The notes: a model not told the origin generated them from the letters alone. DNA of 64,000 nucleotides from Lama glama (GCA_028534125.1 CM052816.1:81222001-81286000); one strand, 5' to 3'. Positions 5,200-40,600 are shown, numbered from the stretch's first letter. A program made the numbers and translations.

Positions 5200-5727
5200 T
5201 TGGAATGGACTGAACTGTGTCCCCTCAAAATTCATATGTTGAAACCCTAACCCCCCTTTAGGACTGTATTTGGAGACAGGGCCTTTAAAGAGGTAAGTAG
5301 AGTCAAATGAGGTCATAAGGGTGAAGTCCTAATTCTATAGGACTGGTGTCTTCATAAGAAAATGAGGCGAGGGTAGAGCTCAGTGGTAGAGCATATGGTC
5401 CTGGGTTCAATCCCCAGTACCTCCATTAAAAAATTAATTAAATGAATAAATAAACCTAATTGTCTCCCCCTAAAAAAATTTTAAAAAGAAAGAAAACGAA
5501 AGCAAGCAGAGATCTCGCTCCTGCAGGCCCACAGGGAAGAGGCCATCTGAGGACTCAGCCTCCTACAAGCCAGGGAGAGAGGACTCACCGGAACCCCCCC
5601 CCCCCCGCCCCCGCACCTTGATCTCAGACGTCTATCCTCCAGAACTGTGAAAAAATAAATAAATTTCTGTTACGTAAGCCACCTGGTCTGCGGTATTCTG
5701 CCATGGCAGCCCGAGCAGAGCTATACA
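5200..5727 (+). mobile_element. MaLR LTR (MLT1A-like) interrupted by a SINE
   Basis: tggactgaactgtgtcccctcaaaattcatatgttgaa start; cctccagaactgtga...aataaatttctgtt...aagccacc...ggcagcccgagcagagctataca end. Confidence 0.8.
5364..5490 (+). mobile_element. Vic-1-like SINE nested in MLT1A
   Basis: gggtagagctcagtggtagagc...ggtcctgggttcaatccccagtacctcc; approximate TSD aagaaaatga/aagaaaacga. Confidence 0.85.
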
Positions 5728-7279: not shown

Positions 7280-7512
7280 TCACGTGTTGAAATTCAAGGA
7301 GAGATGAAAGCAATCAATCTTCAGAGCTCCCCTTCTCAACTTGCTTGCCATCTTGCCTTCATTTTTTTTTTAAGGGCATCAAGCACACCTAGCATTTATT
7401 CATCACAAACCTACAGACCTCTCAGTACACCCTCCTTGGGGCTCAGCCCCAACAATCCAGAGCTGACAACCTTGGGTGTATGTGCTGGAGGGATGGGGAG
7501 CGTCTCTTGGAG
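7280..7512 (+). repeat. Local direct duplication, copy 1 (~230 bp; copy 2 at 8355-8585)
   Basis: Direct alignment; 113-bp core with 2 mismatches. Confidence 0.95.
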
Positions 7513-8354: not shown

Positions 8355-8585
8355 TCATGTGTTGAAATTCAAAGAGAGATGAAAGTGACCAATCTTCAGA
8401 GCCTCCCTTCTTGACCTTTTTGCCATCTTGCCTTCATTTTTTGTAAGCGCATCAGGCACATCTAGCATTTATTCATCACAAACCTACGGACCTCTCAGTA
8501 CACCCTCCTTGGGGCTCAGCCCCAACAATCCAGAGCTGACAACCTTGGGTGTATGTGCTGCAGGGATGGGGAGCATCTCTCGGAG
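8355..8585 (+). repeat. Local direct duplication, copy 2
   Basis: Aligns to 7280-7512. Confidence 0.95.
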
Positions 8586-11063
8586 GACATCAGTTGAGAA
8601 GCACAGAGGGTAACCGGGAGGCAGATACATGGGCCCCTCTCCACTTGCTGGGCTAAACTGTGCTGGTATGTATTCTATGGACCAGCTTAGAAAACCAAGT
8701 AAATGCTTGAGAGAAAGGGACGAGAGACATCTCCATGAATAGGGGATGGGTTGATCTTAGGGCTTTTTCTTAAGAGAGTCCACAGCCTTATTAGGAGGCC
8801 AGTGGAAGGCAGGGACCCTCCAGGGTCAGTAGCAGTAGAGGGGACAGTCCCCAAGGCATAGAGGGCCGCTTAGAGAGCAGAGGAGATCAAATGCAGAACC
8901 GAACTCCATCTGGAGGCAATGGTTTCCTAAAGCTGGGCGGTGCCTGTGCTTCTGTCAAAATGCTTGGAACTTCTCTACCGCCCTCTTCTGCTTCTAAAAC
9001 TCCACCCAAACCTCTCCTCTCAGACCCCTCTGGGTGGGTATAAAACAAATTCTAATCAATATATCAAGGATGGAGGACAAGCTCACGGCCGATCTGCAGC
9101 CTCTGCTCTGGGACGCCGTCCTCAGTCCCTGGGGCTGTCTCCCCGCCGCAGACTTCAGGGAGGCCTGCAACTCCGAAGCAAAGCGTGTGCGGCTTTATCT
9201 TCCTTGCGTTTTACTTTCAGAGTTTTATTTTCCTCCTTCCCTTACAGCGTTCCAACTGCTGGGCTAAGAACTCACGTTACTGAGTTCCTAGACGCCGAAG
9301 CTCATGTTTAATCAATCGGCAGTTCCTGCGCAGCCCACAGCCCCGCGCCCCGTGCGCTTGCTCGGAAGTGGGCCGTGGCCCGTAACTTACTTTCTGAGGA
9401 TTCCGACGAAGCTGCCTGACTCTAAGACTTGTGAGACGTGGGACATTGAAGCTTGCTGCCAGAGGCGTCTGTAGAATGTTGTTCAGTGGAAATCGAGTTG
9501 CAGAATTGGAAGTCTAGAAGAAACCCGAGTCTGCTCCCGCCAAAGGCAGGATCGAGTTTAAACCGCCCCTGCGGGAACTGCAGCTCCTAACACTCCGCGC
9601 CTTCTGGCTCCTTCACCCTCCAAGATGGGCACGGGTAAGAAGAAAATACATAAATATTTTCTTTGCCCAATTCACTTATTCAACTTTTCGTTTTATTATT
9701 TACTTTCCTTTTGGAATCAGCAACTATGCCATAACACAGTTTCTAAGTGGGCCTCACCTTGTCCTTGACAAACCAAGAAAAGATGTACAGGAAAAAGCAA
9801 ATGAGATGAGACTGAGAAGAGCGGGCGGCAGGAAGGCTGGTGAGGAATCAGGCCTGGACCCGCTGTCTGCCTCCCACGCCTCCCTGCGACTCCTAGGAAC
9901 CCGGGCACTCAGAGCACCTGCTGGCCTGAGAGGAACCCGATGGTCTGGGTGGACCGCAACTGCCTTTGCCTTTGCTTTGCAAGGGAGGTAGGAGCAAGAT
10001 GGAATTTGGAAGAGACCTGGGTTTGGAACACAAGCTTTGAGCATGCGCTCTTTCCCTGGCCCCCAGGGAGCAAACACAAGCTGTTGCAAATCACTGTGGT
10101 TACCAAAAGCATATGAGCAGCGGGAGGGAACTGCTCTTGGCCTTGGCTGTACTGCCGGGAATTAAGGGCCACGGACAGGAGCACTGGAGCGCTGGAGCGC
10201 TGGGGTGAACATACTGAAAGTAGTCTGAACAGAACAGAAAATAGGAGCAAGGAAATAAAGTATTTGTTTAGGTATTTCATAGATTAATTATGACAGTCCC
10301 AATAAAGAACATTTTCATTAGATCTTAATCTTTTCCCCAATATTTTCCTGATGCAGAATGTATTCAATAGTGCAATTAGACACCAAATATTATACCATTG
10401 TGAAAATGTATAGAATGCAGTAAATTTCCCACTAATTTCATTTTTCGTATCCAAATTCTTAATTCAGTAGTGAGTACTACTGACAAGGTAGAAATTTAGT
10501 TTGATAGTCTTTGGCTCTTGAAGAATTTTTTAATAATCACTTCATCAAACTTAAGAGGTAAGAATTGTATTTATTTTATAGCTCTTTTTTCTTTTAGTAA
10601 TACTGAGTACTGATAACAGGACTATAAGATAAAAATCAAACATTCAAAAAGTAGGTGACATTTCATTGTTTTCCCAGTTTGTTCTTATTTTTTGTTTTCA
10701 TTTGGTTTCGTTTGTTTTTTGTGGAACGTTGACACTTCAAAAATTTTTACCCAAGGTCTGATTGTAACTTTGCTACCACCTTCTGGCAAAATAATGAACA
10801 TCTTATGATCTTTGATTAGAATGAGTTTCCACAGTTTTGTTCACTTCATGTTGTAAATTTCTTTCACCTGCATCTATCACAGCTAAAAACAAAAGCTGTT
10901 AAAAAGCAAAGATGGCAGAGGAAAGCAAGGTCACAGACTCTCTCTTCTCCAATACCTAAAGAAATGAATTTTTTTTAATGTCTTTACCATCCAATATTCA
11001 AGAGTGACAATAAAAGAACAAAATGGTGTCCCAACAAATCAGGAGAAAATCTGGGAGGAAAAA

Positions 11064-20714: not shown

Positions 20715-20795
20715 GGGTAGGGGTGAAGTTCAGTGATAGAGCATGTGCTTGGTGTGTACAAGGTCCTATTCCCAGTACCTCCATTAAGGGGGAAA
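20715..20795 (+). mobile_element. Degenerate Vic-1-like SINE
   Basis: ttcagtgatagagcatgtgctt...aaggtcct...cccagtacctccatt; flanking aaactccgaacaa/aaactccaaacaa. Confidence 0.75.
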
Positions 20796-21339
20796 AAACT
20801 CCAAACAAGATGTGCTGGGTCAGGAGCTAATTCTAGCTCCTATCAGGGTGAAGGTGAATTCAACAGTCTATTGCTAAATCTGTGAACCAGGAATCTTGCT
20901 GTTGGCAAGGTCTATATATACCACAGGAACAGAGTGAGGCAAACACAGTCTAGGGTTTTGGAATTAGCCAGATGTGGATTCCAATTGTTTCTGCCACTTA
21001 CTGTCACTTTGACAAAATCAGCTGTTTACTCCAGAAACTTCAGTTTCCACCTGTAAAATGTACTTCCTCATGAAGTGATACTAAATGGGAAAGTAAATAA
21101 AATTCCTAGTATCTGCCACCATCCACACTTCCCCACCTTCACACTTAACAAACGGGGGTTATTATCCCACTGGGTAGTTACAGTAAGGGGTGGTTTAAAT
21201 AAACTTACAGAACAGTGCTGCTGCCTTTCCTAAACAAGGGAGGGTCTAACCCAAATTCTTTCTAATCCTTACAGGAAAGAGTTGTAAGCAGTCTTACACC
21301 CCAACTCCCCCCACCCCCTAGATTGCTAGGGTTGAAAAG

Positions 21340-21730
21340 GTTGCGGGTGTCAGCGGGGATGGCGGCGGGGCGGGGGCGGGTGGGAGTGAAGGCTGTGGGG
21401 GAGGCCCCGGCGGGGGGGCCTGGGGGAGGGGCGGCCCAGGACCGGGGTCCAGCGGGGGTCTGGGCAGCGGCGGGGAACCGCACGCGCGCACCGGGCGCTT
21501 GGTGAGCCTGTCGGCCTGGGGGTGTAGAGCGCGAGGGCAGCAGCTGGGCCAGGAGTTCAACCACCGGCCTGTGTTGAGCCAAGTACCCTTGAGCGACGGA
21601 CGCTTCAAGTTCCGCATCCACCGCAAGGTGCGGAGCTGGGGAAGCGGAACTGAAACGTGAAGGGTAGTGGAAGGGGACCAGAGGGAGATGGGGGAGGACA
21701 GCCAGGGTAGCCCACATCACCGGGTACCGA
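21340..21730. promoter_or_regulatory. Orphan CpG island with G-quadruplex-prone tracts (NEURL4-derived)
   Basis: Dense CpG, GC boxes (GGGGCGGGG) and multiple G3-G7 runs at 21355-21480. Confidence 0.6.
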
Positions 21731-21935
21731 GAGAGAACTGACAGGACACCAGCTGATGGGCAGGAGGGGAGCATGAAGCTGAAACACTCAGGCTCATGAA
21801 GAGACAAGGGAGAGCCTAAGTTTCCCTCAAGATCCAGGAGCAGGGAAGGGACACGGGGCTCACCCACTGCCATGACTAGGAAACAGACATCCTGGGACAA
21901 TTTCGGGGGGTGGGGGAGAAAAAAAGAAAGAAACG
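21345..21935 (+). pseudogene. NEURL4: NEURL4 5' fragment retrocopy: 5'UTR, exon 1 (ATG 21359, exon end 21627), retained intron-1 portion, A-rich tail
   Basis: Frame 21322-21627 reads ...[63 protein letters not shown] versus recalled NEURL4 [64 protein letters not shown] (NHR1 domain). ATG-GCG-GCG-GGG (MAAG) is out of frame by a 5-nt duplication. Flanked by AAAGGTTGC direct repeats (21336-21344, 21936-21944). Confidence 0.88.
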
Positions 21936-24404
21936 AAAGGTTGCAAAACCCAAACTACAATGTATTTTGTAATTTCTTTTAAAGCTAACACATCCATCAA
22001 CCTCCTGGAGGCAATTTTCCAATGGAAGTTGCTTGCTGACGACGCTGCTCTGAATACCTCTTTACAGCAAGTGAGTTTGCTTTCTACTTAAAAATTCAAG
22101 AACCATTGCACAGGACTCCAGTGTGTTGGAAATGCTCTCAAACGTTTCTAAGAGCTTTCTCTGCCTACCAGTTAAGGACGCTGTAGTGAGCAAGATATAT
22201 TTCTCCATATTTGGGGGGTCATATATCAAAAAAAGATGTATTTATGAGTGCTTGGATACCAAAGGACCCTTGTTTCAGAAACAAGATTTTTAAGGAAAAC
22301 CATAGGGCTTCTGAAACTATTTTTTGATTAATAATTTAAAGGGTTAGTCTTCAAATTTCAACACCAGGAGGTACTTTTGATCTAGATTGAGAGCGGAAAT
22401 TCTTATAAATTCCTCAAAATCCTCAGATTGCTGCCAAATGCCTTCTCACTACCCCTCTCATCCTTTTGTATCACTCAAGTGTGAGAAAATGAAAAAGTCT
22501 TCTTTTCATCTTCCAAAATCAATAGTGAATAGAGGCAACAGAACTCATGCCTCAAAAGCAGTAAACTGGAGAGGCTCGTAACTGGCTCATGTACCAAGCT
22601 TGACTGCAAACAGGAGCCAAGCACAAAGACAGACAAGATGGACAAGACTGTGGTCTGAACTTGAGATGCTCAGCTGTGTGTGAGGGGAAGGAGGGGAGTG
22701 GTTTGAGAACCAAAATAATCAGATTCATGTTAAAATAGGGTACAGCAGGAAATAATTTTCTATGAAAGTATTAAAAGTACTCACGACTCAGGTGGAACTT
22801 AGGAAAGTCACGAGAAAGTGACTGAACTTGATGCTGACACAAAAGATCAGTTTAAATACGTGCTGAACACAGCCAACTCTCCGTCACTCAGATGTCGCAG
22901 TTTCACACACTCCATCCATATCCCACATCCTTACACAGCCACCATTCCATTTCTTTTTCGTTCACAACCAAGCTGCTCAGCCTCCAACTCGTCACTCAAC
23001 CAGCCTCTGCCTTGCCCACTCTTGTCAACACCCATTACCTACAAACCACCACATCATCAGAAATGTCAGTGTTGTAAAAGCCAAGGAAGAAGTGAAGAAC
23101 TGTGTCAGGCTGAAGACTGAAGAGACGTAACAACCAAAAGAATTGGAAGCTTTTGCTATAAAGACATTACTGCAACAACTGGTAAACTTTGAATGGGATC
23201 TCTGGGTATATGGAATTCTCTGTACTATTCTGTTTGGAAAATAAAGCCAGAGAAGGGGCTAGTATAAGCCTGGGGCTTAATTAGAATAAGGCCTAAATGG
23301 AATTCCACCTCACTTTCCAAAACACGAGCTACAATACACAGTTTTAATTAAGTTCTGGCTTGAATGGCAGAAGCCCCTTGTATACAGCATTTTTGTTATC
23401 AAGACAGGTTAAAGTATTCAACTGCTGAGATTCAGGACAAGTGTTTTATTTTCTAGCAGTTAGAGAAAAGAAGTGGTTTAAATCATTCCCAAGTTAATAA
23501 GTTATCTAGCAGAAAAATTAACTATTAAACTCTCTATTAAGAGCCAAAGAGTAAAATAAGAGGGGCATTTCACTTCAGGTAGAAACAGTATGTCATTGTT
23601 AGCCCAGAACTAAAATAGCTGTGGAAAGAGAGGGCTCGGAAGGTCTGAACTCTAATGAATTTATATGAAGTGGGCACGGCAGGAGAGGGGGTGCCCTGCG
23701 TAGCGAGAAATTTTACACAGACAGCCGTTGTCGTCAATAAACTGTTATATAATAAATAATTCTACTTTTTTTTTAATGTTTCATGCTTTTCACACTCCTT
23801 TTCTATCCCATAACTCCTTTGAGTGTAAAGTCAGTGACTAACTGTGTAAGTCCCAAGTACTATTTTATTCCTTTTTACTGGATTTTTGAGTCAGCATGTT
23901 TTACTAAAATTTACAGTTAAAATTAAGTGGAACAAAATAAGAGTCATAAGTAACCTTTCATGGATCTCTCTAACCCTGTGTTAAGTTTCCCTAAATGGAA
24001 ATTTAAACGAGAGATCTCAATATGTAACTAGGCAAAAGTACTAACCAAGAAGGGAAAAACAGACACTTCTTTATAGAGTCTGAAATACCCAAAGGTGTCC
24101 ATTATGCAGCTAATTATAACAAGGAATAATCAGACCACAAAGCACTCACACAGGTAAAGAAAAAAAGAGACCATATAGACTTCGTATTTGCACTTTTCCA
24201 TTTGGATCGAGTAGACGGAAAAAATGGACTCACAACATCCAGTCTCAGAGGTCCTCAGACTAAACCCTCTAAGGCTAATTCACATTCCAAAGCATTCACA
24301 CAGAAAGGGCTCTTGTTTGTTAATAAAACCCATTTAACAGATAACTTAGCCACTCATCTTCAGGTTTGTGAAACTGGGATGACACATAGGGTACATTTCT
24401 TGTT

Positions 24405-24410
24405 TTTATT
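24405..24410 (-). terminator. Candidate distal polyadenylation signal AATAAA of SUB1
   Basis: tttatt on + strand; downstream on the minus strand: tgtaccctatgtgtc. Confidence 0.6.
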
Positions 24411-31662: not shown

Positions 31663-34600
31663 AGCAGAAGCAGAATAATTATATCTCTACTGCAATGTTT
31701 GCCCATAGTCCTGAGAAATCTGATGCAGAAAAACAGGGATACAACTTTAAAATCTCACTGGAAAAAAGAGTTCAAAATCAAGACTGAAAGCAACCTATTT
31801 TTTAAAAGAGACAGTACATTTTAAGTATATTAATGGCATTTTACCAGTCTTCAATCAGTAACAACGAATACTCAGTTATTTTCTGTAAAGAGCACAGTAC
31901 AGTAAACACAACAAACGGTTAGTGGGCTACTTTTACTACGCTTGTCCCCCAGAAACTTCTCACAAACTTCCTCATCCACAATTTCTACAAGGTGTGTATA
32001 AATGTCTTTGTTTGCTACCGATGAACTTAGTAGAAGCATTTTCTTCCTTACAAACATGACTGATCATCCACATATTTCAAGCTTAGGGAATTTACAATCT
32101 AAAGTTCCTAGTCACGTTTCAAATAACTTGTGTTCAATTACACTAAGTAAGAAATTATTCAAACTCGGAAAAGAGTATATAGGTCAATAAACTGACACAC
32201 TAAAATCTGCCAACAATGCTTCAGAGAACACCAGCACTAAACAGCTGTAGGGGTAGGAGAAAGGGAAAGCCTGGGGACACAGACTAACGTTGCTCTACCA
32301 CAATCTGAACTTTCACTGTACACTAAAACTAACTGTGCATTTTGTATACTATCCCTTAATATACCTAGCGTTCACTTTAGCATAGAAAGAAAGCTTTAAA
32401 GCAAATCTCCAAATAAAGATAGGCCATACAGAAAACTGCACCATTTTTATTCCACGACTTTACAATCTCCAAGCCCAAGGTAGCAAATCCACAGTATGCA
32501 CATTCATTCCTGAGGCTAAGCAATGGAGGCATTAAAGGGAAAAGAATTAGAAGGATACTTTGCTCCAACATCAGGAATAAGGCAAAGATGTTTGCTCCCA
32601 ACATGTCACTTCAGTATTTTAGTGGAAATACTAGCAAAAAAGCAAGCAAAGAATTAAAAGGATGATGTAAAACTCAACAGATAAAATCATCAACACAGAA
32701 AATTCTAAGAAGTCATAAATTGCAATATTTTTTCAATCCATGTCCTAGAGTAATAGAAAAATAAGCAAATGGGACCTAATTAAACTTAAAAGTTTCTGCA
32801 CAGCAAAGGAAACCATAAACAAGACAAAAAGACAACATACAGAATGGTAGAAAATATTTGCAAATGATGTGACCAACAAGGGATTAATTTCCAAAATATA
32901 CAAACAGCTCACAGAGCTCAACATCAAAAAAACAAAAAACCAAAAAAACACAACACCACAATCAAAAAATGGGCAGAAGATCTAAACAGACATTACTCCA
33001 AAGACACAAAACGGCCAATAGGCACATGAAAAGATGTTCAACATCGCTAATTATTACAGAAGTGCAAATCAAAACTACAATGAGGTATCATCTCACACCA
33101 GTCAGAATGGCCATTATCAAAAAGTCCACAAATAATAAATGCTGGAGAGGCTGTGGAGAAAAGGGAACCCTCCTACACTGATGATGGGAATGTCAACTGG
33201 TGCAGCCACTATGGAAAACAGTACGGAGGTTCCTCAAAAAACTAATAGAATTGCCATACGATCCAGCAATCCCACGATCCAGCAATCCCACTCCTGGGCA
33301 TATAGCTGGAGAAGACTTTTTGAATCAGAGTTTTAGAATGAGAAAAGATACACGCACCCCAATGTTCACAGCAACACTATTTACAATAGCCAAGACATAG
33401 AAGCAACCTAAATATTCCATCAACAGATAAACGGGTAAATATGTGGTACACGTACACACACATACATACATACACATGCACACGCACATGCGCACACACA
33501 CGCACACACACAATGGAATATTACTCAGCCATAAGAAAGAATGAATGAATGCCATTTGCAGCAACATGGATGGACCTAGAGATATCATACCAAGTGAAGA
33601 AAGTCCGAAAGAGAAAGACAAATATACATCACTTACATGTGGAATCTAAAATATGATATAAATAAACTTAATTTAAAAAAAAAAAGACTCAGAGACATAG
33701 AAAACAAACTTATGGTTACCAAGTAAGCAGGGAGGGGGGGAGGAATAAATTAGGACCTTAGGATTATCATATACACACTACTATATATAGAATAAGATAA
33801 AACAAGGACCTACTGTATAGCACAGGGAATTATATTCAATATCTTGTAATAACCTACAATAGAAAAGAATCTGAAAAAGAACAGATATACATATACAAGA
33901 ACTGAATCACTCTGCTGTACACCTGAAACTAACACAACACTGTAAATTATACTTCAATTTAAAATAAATAAATAAACAAACAAAAATAAATGAATGAACG
34001 GAGAAAGATACTGTATTCACAAACAGGAACTTTTAATACTGTCAAGTTGCCAATTCTCCCCAATCTGAATCAAAATCCCAGTAGGCTTTCTGGTAAAAAT
34101 TGACAAGCTAATCATAAAATGTGTATGAAAATACAAAAGACATAGAATAGCAAAAATAATTATGAACTTGAAGAATAATGTTAAAGGACTTACACTACCA
34201 GATTTCAAGACTCACCATAAAAGCACACACAGTAATTAAGAGAGTGTGGTACTGGAGTAAAGTAACAGGGGGAGAGGGTGATAGCTCAATGGTAGAGCAC
34301 GTGCCTAGCATGAACGAAGTCCTGAGTTCATTCCCCAGTACCTCGATTTTAAAAATAAACTAAATAAAAAATACCTTAAAAGATAGACATACAGATCAAT
34401 GGAACAGAACAGAGTGTAGCAATAAATACATATTTTATATGTTTACTGATTTTCTTTTTAAGATCCAACATGATTCAATGGGAAAAGAATAGTCTTCAAC
34501 AAATGGTAACGGTACAACTGGATTATCCATATAGAGGTGAAAAATTAGTCTCAACCCTTATTTCACACTATACACAAACTAATTCCACATGGATTAGCAA

Positions 34601-37600: not shown

Positions 37601-40600
37601 CTTTCAAAAGGATGAGGCTTAGGAACCTTCAAAATAAAGGTTTAAGAACTGAATTCACTCTTTTTGGTGAGATAACCTCCTCATAAAAGTAGAACTGCTT
37701 TCCCAAAACTGCTCTAACAGTATTAAATCTCGAAATGTGGCTCCTGGTTTCTTTATCTGTAAAATCAGGGGTTAAGTCGACAAGATAAAACCCATTAATA
37801 GGCCACAGATGCTCTATTATTATCCAAGTAAAGGCAGGCATACAGTAAACAGAATTGATCAGAGAAAAGCCCAAGATAGTTGCCAAGTAAATACTTAGTA
37901 CAAACATACACAGAAGGAAGATGTAATACTCTTGCAGATTTTACTTTTAATTCTGCCCCTTAAATTAGCTTCCCACTGCACTTAGAATAAAACTCAAACT
38001 AAAAATTCCCAACAGGAAAGCCCTGCAAATCTGGCTCTTCATGGTCCCTTCCAATTAGATCTCCTACCTATACTCTCAGCCACTTTCCAGGCTCCAGCCA
38101 CAGGGGCTCCCTAATTCCTGTGCAATTCAAGCTCTTTCCCACTTCAAGGCACTGCACAAGACCCTCTACTTTGAAAATGCTTCCCTCCCCCATTCCCCTG
38201 GCTTGGCCAGCTTCTCCTTCATGTCTTAAGCTTCAATTGTCACTGCCTCAGAAAAAGGTTCTCAGAGCACCTTCTCTCTCATAATAATCTGCCCTTCGAC
38301 TTCTCAGCCCTTAACATAACTTTAATTGTACTATCTACTCAAAGAAATGAAGGCTCTTTCATAATTCTTCCTTACATATAAACAGCACGATCTATAATCA
38401 TCACTATTCATCTTTTGGAAAAACCATCAAAGCCCTTATCACCTCACATAATTTATCCCCACTGCCTCTCCCCATAAATCCTTCTTGTACCATGAGGCCA
38501 GTATCAAGTCTCCCTAAAACAAGAAACCCAAGAAAAGAAGCTATACCAAGTCTGGGTAATTTGATCAACTCCCTCTAATGAACTTCTCTCACTTTACCTC
38601 TCTACTCAACCTTACTACCCACAATATATAAACAGAGGGCAAGTTTTAGTAAACCCACTCACCTTTCCTGTTATCAAGCCAAAACAGAGCAGGTCGTATT
38701 ACTGCTTCCCTTCCAGGAATATTCTATCCATACTTCACAGCCCAATACTAAACCTACTTCTTCCAAACTGCTTTCTAAATGTGCAGTTCTCAATCTCTTT
38801 TTTGGGATTTCTCCAACTTTTAAATTTTCATTGTTTTAAATATAGCAAAATTACAGAATTCTAGATTTTAAGAATACTCTACCATCATGTAAGTTGCTTT
38901 CACTTCTACTGACTTGTTCTTATATTCCCACAAGTATCTTCAGTCAAGAGGATGATAACATACATGATAGATTATTATGCATTATCAGATTAAGGTACTT
39001 TTAACATTCTTCAGATCAAGTCACGTAATTAATTCCTCTGGATCTAATGAAATAACATTACCTGAAACATGTTATCATCTCTGCTGCTGCTGCTCTGCTT
39101 GGAGGATGACAAGGCTCTTGAAGTTTCACCAGTTTTTTGCTTCTTTACAGGTTTTTCTGGAGCAACTTGCTTTTTCCTCTTTAACTTGAAAGAAAAACAA
39201 GAATATGGTTAAAACTCGCATAAGAACAAAACACAACTCAGGTTAAAAAGATTCCACTACTTTTGAAGACTTAAAGGATCAAAAGGCTAATTAAGAAAAA
39301 AAATTATAAACATATACATACGCAAGTTTCACTTGACAACAGAACTGTGAAACTAACCTAGCACTGTTATCCAGCACAGTGCTTCTGAAGTGTGTTGTCA
39401 GAAACCCAAAAGAGGGGAGGGGACAGCTCACTGGTAGAAGACTGTGCCTAACATACATGAGGTCCTGGGTTCAATCCCCAATACCACCATTAATAAATAC
39501 ACACATACATACACACATACATACATACATACACCTGATTACCCGCCCCCACACCCCCAAAAAAAGAAAAAAAATTGAGAAAAAAAGAAACCCAGAAGAT
39601 ACTTCAGGCATTAGACTGGTATTCAGAGAAAGTTATTTTATACACTGAATTCCACATAAGATTTCCTTGGGAGAAAAAATGATGGCGGGAAGGGGGCACC
39701 TGCTACTTTTGAATAAACTTTTGGAAATCACAAGTCTAGTAACTAGTCAGTTACTTATTTTTACAAAGAAAATATACTAATTAGGAAGAATAAAACCAAC
39801 TTATGATTATTTACTTATGCCTGCCTATTCCAAAAGGGACTTAAATTGGCTTAGGAGGGTTATGAGTAGGCTAAGTTAAGAAAGCTATTTTGTACTGGGC
39901 ACCAGAGGATCACAAAACTTCCTCACCAAAAAAATTAAAAATTAAAAAAATTAAAAATTAAAAAAATAAAATAAAAAGTACTTAAAAAATTTCCTTACCA
40001 CACACACACACACAAAATTGCTCACTGAAGATAGACAGCAATGTGTTGGGCTAGCATTCAAAATCAAAACAATGTTTTAAAAGCAGCATTACTATAAAAG
40101 CTTTTTATAAGGCCTCATTCTCGCTACTGCCCATGCAATCTAGTAATTCCAAATCCAAACAACAGGGGGCAGTCATGTTCCTTAATGGAAGGAAGGGATA
40201 CACTATTTTAACATTTTACTAAACTAGATGAAGCTAGGTACGACATAATGTATATATTCATGTACACAAACTGAAAAAGTGGATTTATTTAATGTAAATA
40301 CAGGACTAATAGTACTATTTGAGACAAACGGCAAAAATTAACTCAGCTCAATACGCAGAAAGCAATTACTCTTTGTATCAGGGTCCAGACAGTCCCTGTG
40401 GACTAGTACGTGCCTAGCACTTAACAGCTCAATAAAAATTTGTCAAATGAATGTATTCAAGTGCATATTTAAAAATTAAGGGACATTTCCTTCTCGAATA
40501 CAGCTGTGCATGCTCTTAGAAGCCTTCTTTCAACCTTCCAGGTGACACCATATTCGGTATTTCCCTATAAAGGTGCATCTCCTCCAGGATTCTCATATAA

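Follow-up and report, generated by a model that had tools for sequence, protein, structure and literature searches.

The NEURL4 Fragment beside SUB1

The window, by which we mean the whole 64,000-nucleotide stretch of Lama glama DNA that was analyzed, contains SUB1, whose coding exons run along the minus strand between 41418 and about 27366. An AATAAA hexamer at 24405–24410 on the same strand lies 2956 nt after the stop codon, and we take it to be the likely distal SUB1 site, presuming a ~3-kb 3′ untranslated region as in human. Just past this 3′ end, on the plus strand and convergent with SUB1, a copy of a 5′ fragment of NEURL4 spans 21345–21935.

The copy is flanked by a target-site duplication (TSD). 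The 5′ member, AAAGGTTGC, occupies 21336–21344 and is identical at 9/9 positions to the 3′ member at 21936–21944, which was found by repeat comparison. Directly before the 5′ TSD is TTGA, an L1-endonuclease-like site. In its first 283 nt the insert resembles NHR1, the first NHR domain of NEURL4 (PDB 2E63, KIAA1787; E 2.7e-14), with the match covering residues 1–59 of the 170 in the 2E63 chain. This exon-1 copy, at 21345–21627, opens with 14 nt that precede the parental ATG at 21359 and continues with a Gly-rich leader and the start of NHR1.

The exon is followed by about 290 nt from the 5′ part of NEURL4 intron 1 (21628–21918); its first bases, GTGCGG, are those of the native donor, which scores 8.4 bits. 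The homology to intron 1 reaches 21867 when the insert is compared by tblastn with gene calls of other species that read through into the intron. The tails of six of seven such calls match the intron part of the insert (best E 1.8e-11), and that of P0018 is identical at 26/37 residues in one frame; the stretch 21868–21918 is placed in intron 1 by position alone. The possibility that 21628 onward is a decayed exon 2 was rejected, as the likeness of its first residues to exon 2 is shared by the read-through calls of intact genes, which match far further. The exon-2 residues of P0002 likewise gave no collinear match past the donor in tblastn. Because intron 1 comes directly after exon 1, the donor is the parent’s own and the template was unspliced.

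The insert ends in an A-rich tail at 21919–21935 that is short and degenerate, with A at 13/17 positions. None of 12 types of poly(A)-signal hexamer occurs in the 60 nt before the tail, so priming on an A-rich tract of the intron would be as likely an origin as intronic polyadenylation. Homology to NEURL4 in foreign flanks adjoining SUB1 is the mark of a retrocopy, and together with the TSD and the A-rich 3′ tail it gives the insert the features of an L1 retrocopy. It is distinct from a processed pseudogene, in which introns are removed and exon–exon junctions formed, in that intron 1 is retained. Judged by its sequence, the insert is to be read as a TSD-flanked copy of an unspliced NEURL4 RNA fragment with its native donor, likely pasted in by L1 given the TSD, tail, and target site. 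The earlier note had described a retrocopy with an imported donor, and the TSD, the NHR1 match, and the intron-1 read-through matches bear this out.

The flank at 21305–21325, which ends 10 nt short of the 5′ TSD, is the reverse complement (17/21) of 21898–21918, the bases of the insert directly ahead of the A-rich tail. No match of this sort within 128 kb is better, and 6/2106 control windows score as high. The complementarity could be a trace of RNA–DNA pairing at insertion; each arm, however, is a run of G/C, and the comparison was post hoc.

Survival of the CpG Island

The exon-1 copy, with 27 CpG, is a CpG island of 283–316 nt that has a GC content of 73–74% and an observed/expected (o/e) CpG ratio of 0.75–0.79. 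The ratio is 0.75 in the exon copy; it falls to 0.04 over the kilobase upstream, to 0.28 on the downstream side, and to 0.19–0.30 in the intron part, and it is 0.77 at the SUB1 promoter. GC boxes lie within the exon-1 copy at 21368 and 21374. Clear CpG transitions account for only 3 of the 14 replacements, and six of the ten Arg codons are still CGN. Under methylated decay, so few CpG losses have a P of 0.012–0.046 at middle assumptions, in a small test that uses inferred parental codons and ranges from 0.48 to <0.001 across assumptions.

The survival of the island fits an unmethylated, promoter-like state and suggests that the island is hypomethylated in the germ line. Counted against promoter activity is the parental sequence imported upstream of the ATG, which is only 14 nt long. 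The earlier proposal that the retrocopy supplies a promoter stands as a suggestion, to which CpG survival and the RNA-type runs that hold part of the stretch both contribute. Within 21484–21627, about 10 of the 14 inferred replacements are transversions, 4–6 of them C<->G, and the numbers are small; recombination-linked mutation at an open island may be the source of this excess.

The Imported Donor and the Downstream Splice Motifs

The imported donor, AAG|GTGCGG, is at 21627/21628. An acceptor at 21984/21985 sits 40 nt past the 3′ TSD and opens a candidate 86-nt exon (21985–22070, plus strand) that ends in CAA|GTGAGT at 22070/22071. A candidate 101-nt intron (22071–22171, plus strand) leads to a further acceptor at 22171/22172. 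These motifs had been noted before as the parts of a chimeric transcript, and each was found where it had been placed. The ‘ctaag’ that had been called a branch-like site misfits the yTrAy motif, which is absent from positions −45 to −15 of both acceptors, 21985 and 22172.

The donors at 21627 and 22070 score 8.4 and 8.8 bits on approximate splice matrices that are other than those of MaxEntScan, and 77 and 59 sites, respectively, are as good in 128 kb. Three SUB1 donors score 7.9–10.3 bits, a range into which both donors fall. The acceptors at 21985 and 22172 score 4.4 and 6.2 bits, values that 780 and 485 sites reach within 128 kb. The candidate exon pairs a weak AAG acceptor with a good donor, and its acceptor is below all four SUB1 acceptors that were scored (5.1–12.9 bits). 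A competing plus-strand acceptor at 22067/22068 reaches 6.4 bits and does have a branch motif, CTGAC at −29, and a second AG 5 nt beyond the acceptor of the 101-nt intron scores 5.1 bits.

An acceptor as good as 21985 occurs within 70–400 nt of 1020/1268 arbitrary points. The full pattern of acceptor, exon, donor, intron, and acceptor is found within 600 nt after 70/1264 arbitrary points (5.5%) at thresholds taken from the observed scores; when the donor threshold is set at 7 bits it follows 183/1264 (~15%), and within 2 kb 460/1236, the start points being overlapping ones. Such frequencies place the downstream motifs, as a set, only mildly above what chance would give. A metagenome scan for a 24-nt piece of the candidate exon returned 0 matches.

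A hairpin is predicted across the imported donor at 21600–21660 (−27.4 kcal/mol, z −3.7), with the donor paired at 7/9 positions. Values of z ≤ −3 were obtained in 1/33, 1/38, and 1/22 comparator windows. The hairpin is largely ancestral, as parent-like variants fold at −15 to −35 kcal/mol. Several copy-specific changes add pairs to it, a level that 31–70 of 3000 random controls reach in a biased test. The predicted structure would carry low weight for splicing.

Sequencing Runs That Share Words with the Locus

For 21345–22400, 24 sequencing runs are listed by their content of 118 words. Four runs of unstated kind, from one study of organism C, hold 0.89–0.94 of the words and are probably DNA; shares this high mostly confirm the assembly, though not at the G-run base. 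Eleven runs classed as RNA or RNA? from four studies hold 0.20–0.31 of the 118 words, five of them recorded as RNA and six only guessed to be so. The five recorded RNA runs are all labelled reproductive system and come from two 2025 studies, maybe one campaign, as studies P1–P3 may also be. The RNA count leaves out X12–X14 (RNA?, 0.18–0.19) and X19–X24 (unindexed raw reads).

The predicted share is 0.28 for exons 1 and 2 in the same species, 0.19–0.26 for three exons at 2–3% divergence, and 0.28 for coverage of the whole region at 4% divergence. Depending on the species of the run, the observed shares can be accounted for equally by spliced RNA, by unspliced RNA, or by coverage of the whole region. 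Parental NEURL4 mRNA was also considered as the source of the words and rejected, its expected share being at most 0.01.

With such shares, the copy itself might be silent, the RNA being minus-strand SUB1 read-through or DNA carry-over and the splice motifs being unused chance matches. Whole-region coverage at 4% divergence would give the 0.28 share, and the frequency of the splice pattern after arbitrary points (5.5–15% within 600 nt), together with the acceptors as good as 21985 that lie 70–400 nt from 1020 of the 1268, is what chance matches would produce. The locus is also 2–3 kb past the SUB1 hexamer, and read-through past poly(A) sites is documented in germ cells in the available text of PMC11615739, so that SUB1 itself becomes a candidate source of the RNA words. 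A silent copy does not fit the survival of a CpG island beside a CpG-depleted flank or the fact that the donor is the native one, and the top RNA holders are reproductive, a confinement that would not be expected of housekeeping read-through. On these grounds we consider a silent copy a serious but doubtful explanation. Strong minus-strand acceptors of 11.0–11.9 bits are present at 23618, 22673, 21752, and 21635, and SUB1 read-through RNA could use them to form transcripts antisense to NEURL4 exon 1.

A Strong Acceptor Upstream of the Insert

A strong plus-strand acceptor at 21274/21275 (21245–21275; 10.5 bits) was absent from the earlier note. It is located 70 nt upstream of the insert, is the best nearby, and has a CTAAC branch at −26 with no AG between; a branch motif together with a clean AG zone is found in 5 of the 86 sites in 128 kb that score at least as high. 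A second upstream acceptor, at 21321/21322 on the plus strand, scores 9.6 bits. If acceptor 21275 were used, the NEURL4 piece would become an internal exon of 353 nt with its 3′ end at 21627, and this length, which is long for an internal exon, is counted against such use. The description of the NEURL4 copy as a ‘first exon’ is challenged by acceptor 21275.

The RNA to which such an internal exon (21275– or 21322–21627) would belong is a non-coding plus-strand RNA started upstream, for example from 9100–9650. This orphan CpG-rich stretch (o/e 0.74) includes an ATG, at 9625, and the donor at its end, 9634/9635, scores 9.7 bits. It contains CGGAAGT, which we take to be an ETS-like motif, and the top plus-strand acceptor score within 1–24400 falls inside it at 9248 (16.7 bits). 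The stretch is a possible promoter or exon of an unannotated plus-strand RNA, or an LTR edge. Besides the strength, CTAAC branch, and clean AG zone of acceptor 21275 and the donor that ends 9100–9650, an upstream origin is in keeping with the gain of upstream exons by 75–93% of multi-exon retrogenes, as given in the available text of PMC4772013. Nearby strong AGs are, however, not rare, with 129 sites in 128 kb scoring at least 9.6, and an internal exon alone leaves CpG survival unexplained. An internal exon of an upstream-started RNA is accordingly quite unlikely in our estimation.

Convergence with SUB1

The distance of 2.2 kb between 22172 and the SUB1 hexamer, as it had been noted, is correct. 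Between them, plus-strand hexamers occur at 22770, 23240, 23524, 23736, 23751, and 24322. The best candidate for a plus-strand poly(A) signal is 23736–23756, which has two AATAAA and a T-rich downstream sequence and lies ~0.65 kb before the SUB1 hexamer. Further minus-strand hexamers are found at 23869 and 23450. Since all six plus-strand hexamers precede the SUB1 hexamer, the mature RNAs would be without overlap, except where SUB1 transcripts run on to the hexamers at 23869 or 23450. SUB1 is presumably highly expressed and terminates toward the NEURL4 copy, which is counted against transcription of the copy.

The same arrangement gives no support to the earlier suggestion of a tail-to-tail antisense regulator, as every plus-strand hexamer falls short of 24405–24410. 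A plus-strand RNA selected to regulate SUB1 3′ end choice or level would draw on the convergent orientation of units 2.2 kb apart, whose termination zones would overlap. The hexamers at 22770–24322 would nevertheless keep the mature RNAs apart, and interference would more probably be exerted by SUB1 onto the weak unit, so that selected regulation of this kind is highly improbable.

Coding Potential

The parental ATG opens a 48-codon reading frame (21359–21505, plus strand) that is out of frame with NHR1 and stops 122 nt before the donor. Under the 50–55-nt rule of nonsense-mediated decay (NMD), a stop in this position is a predicted NMD trigger if the RNA is spliced. The NHR frame of the copy is open for 102 codons without an ATG; a protein gene would have its start codon in the conserved frame, and here the parental ATG is in another. 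In comparison to the parental segment, 14/48 residues are changed and one whole codon is deleted in NHR1. The 49-residue segment is exact in 18/105 stored proteins, and for the copy pN is at least 0.128 in this otherwise invariant segment, which is not the pattern of purifying selection. Changes at 14/48 residues of an invariant segment mark an old copy that is free of protein constraint. Read from its sequence, the NEURL4 copy is dead as a protein.

Seven copy-specific marks are borne by 0/105 stored proteins, and the 94-codon frame matches 0 Pfam families. A peptide from the window gave no match in homologue searches, and as the same searches also missed the in-range relatives P0003 and P0011, their blanks carry no weight. 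A metagenome scan for the parent confirmed 0/599 pattern matches. The spliced NHR-frame peptide proposed earlier does reach a TGA at 22051–22053; its frame is without ATG. A micropeptide gene is not sustained, given that the ATG is out of frame, 14/48 residues are changed, and two-thirds of the NHR domain, all but its N-terminal part, are missing.

The distance from ATG to donor (269 nt) is one short of a multiple of three, G runs lie at 21367–21370 and 21372–21376, the NHR frame runs uninterrupted through 102 codons with an NHR1 deletion of a whole codon, and the late stop, 17 nt before the last junction, would escape NMD, so an assembly error or G-run polymorphism could hide a chimeric peptide of ~112 codons (the NEURL4 N-terminus plus 22 new residues); this is scarcely credible against the 14/48 changed residues, a match limited to residues 1–59 of 2E63, copy-specific marks that recur in 0/105 stored proteins, and an assembly that the best four holders (0.89–0.94 of words) mostly confirm, though not at the offset base.

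Proposed Mechanism

The reading that we favor is a dead copy with an open island. L1 would have inserted a copy of unspliced NEURL4 RNA consisting of exon 1 and part of intron 1. The surviving CpG island would likely stay unmethylated in the germ line and, acting as a putative promoter, likely drive low-level non-coding plus-strand RNA in reproductive tissue. The imported donor would then be spliced onto whichever local acceptor is available. For this reading as a whole, with the native donor spliced at some rate, we see about an even chance. Plus-strand RNA from the copy is, by itself, fairly probable, and use of the 21627 donor falls somewhat short of even. That both junctions, 21627^21985 and 22070^22172, are formed exactly as the earlier note proposed is unlikely. 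These gradings are the authors’ judgement. Any such RNA would most likely be neutral, a by-product that yields no peptide and has no effect on SUB1.

Comparison with Known Retrocopies

The TMF1 semi-processed pseudogene in CYBB (Kazazian 2014, PMC4151081) is similarly an L1-type, incompletely spliced copy that is 3′-truncated inside an intron, and it shows that copies of this sort can be exonised in part. As described in the available text of that report, the TMF1 copy comprises eight exons joined by spliced junctions and has an AGUAAA signal followed by a tail of 100 nt; its host gene takes it up as an exon in antisense orientation. In contrast, the NEURL4 copy consists of a single exon without a spliced junction, its tail is 17 nt long, and neither a poly(A) signal was found nor is a host gene known. 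It shares with semi-processed copies the end within an intron and differs in the spliced junction and in the intronic poly(A) signal (0/12 hexamers in 60 nt).

A parallel for promoter activity is PPP1R26P1, or CpG85, in RB1. The available text of PMC3839921 describes the island of a truncated retrocopy as a promoter and start exon joined to local exons, and attributes its CpG survival to germ-line hypomethylation, an argument that may extend to the NEURL4 island. The NEURL4 copy likewise has a CpG island inside the copy. The PPP1R26P1 island derives from parental exon 4, lies in reverse orientation in RB1, is subject to imprinting, and has a genuine exon of the gene as its splice partner (PMC3839921). 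The NEURL4 copy instead has the parent’s own exon-1 island and own donor, and its splice targets would be cryptic and its activity putative.

More generally, half of the novel promoters of human retrocopies are in CpG islands, the testis expresses most retrocopies, and 18–40% of multi-exon retrogenes gain downstream exons, according to the available text of Carelli 2016 (PMC4772013). An out-of-frame copy with its flank, a putative and probably non-coding transcript, and a testis bias are likenesses to that survey and to the Type III of Baertsch 2008 (PMC2584115). In the available text of the latter, retrogene splice sites that coincide with those of the parent were not seen, because introns are removed first; in the NEURL4 copy, an unspliced template brings the parent’s donor intact. 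Each ingredient has already been described, and the parent’s own donor is the distinctive point. The locus is a plausible source of a non-coding chimeric RNA of a known kind. Searches for NEURL4 retrocopies or pseudogenes, NEURL4 in camel, and camel testis lncRNA with SUB1 returned nothing on the locus by title or abstract start, and the supplementary lncRNA tables of camelid transcriptomes could carry it under an anonymous id.

Standard retrocopy pipelines accept only copies with multiple exons and little intronic sequence (bioRxiv 2020.06.07.139212, available text), so single-exon, intron-bearing copies such as that of NEURL4 would be missed. Should the junctions prove real, the locus would represent a clean one-step route from an unspliced RNA copy to a new spliced gene, in which a CpG island and a working donor arrive together; ordinary processed copies are incapable of this. 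The boldest outcome is that the island and the native U1 donor founded a lineage-specific spliced gene of reproductive tissue from cryptic intergenic exons, kept for tens of Myr and either modulating SUB1 termination or making a new 112-residue peptide; this we hold to be improbable. Unless splicing or a function is demonstrated, what remains is a pseudogene of the ordinary kind, in decay and accompanied by an orphan CpG island.

Other Elements of the Window

Five tRNA-derived SINE copies are present in the window, at 432–503, 5369–5425, 20715–20790, 34275–34346, and 39411–39499, and their type resembles that of camelid SINEs. Rfam and ARAGORN reported only three tRNA-like SINE heads in the window and 0 at the NEURL4 copy; ARAGORN calls the SINE at 432–503 a tRNA-Ala gene, probably falsely. 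A local duplication of 233 nt with 91% identity is formed by 7280–7512 and 8355–8585, which are 1075 nt apart.
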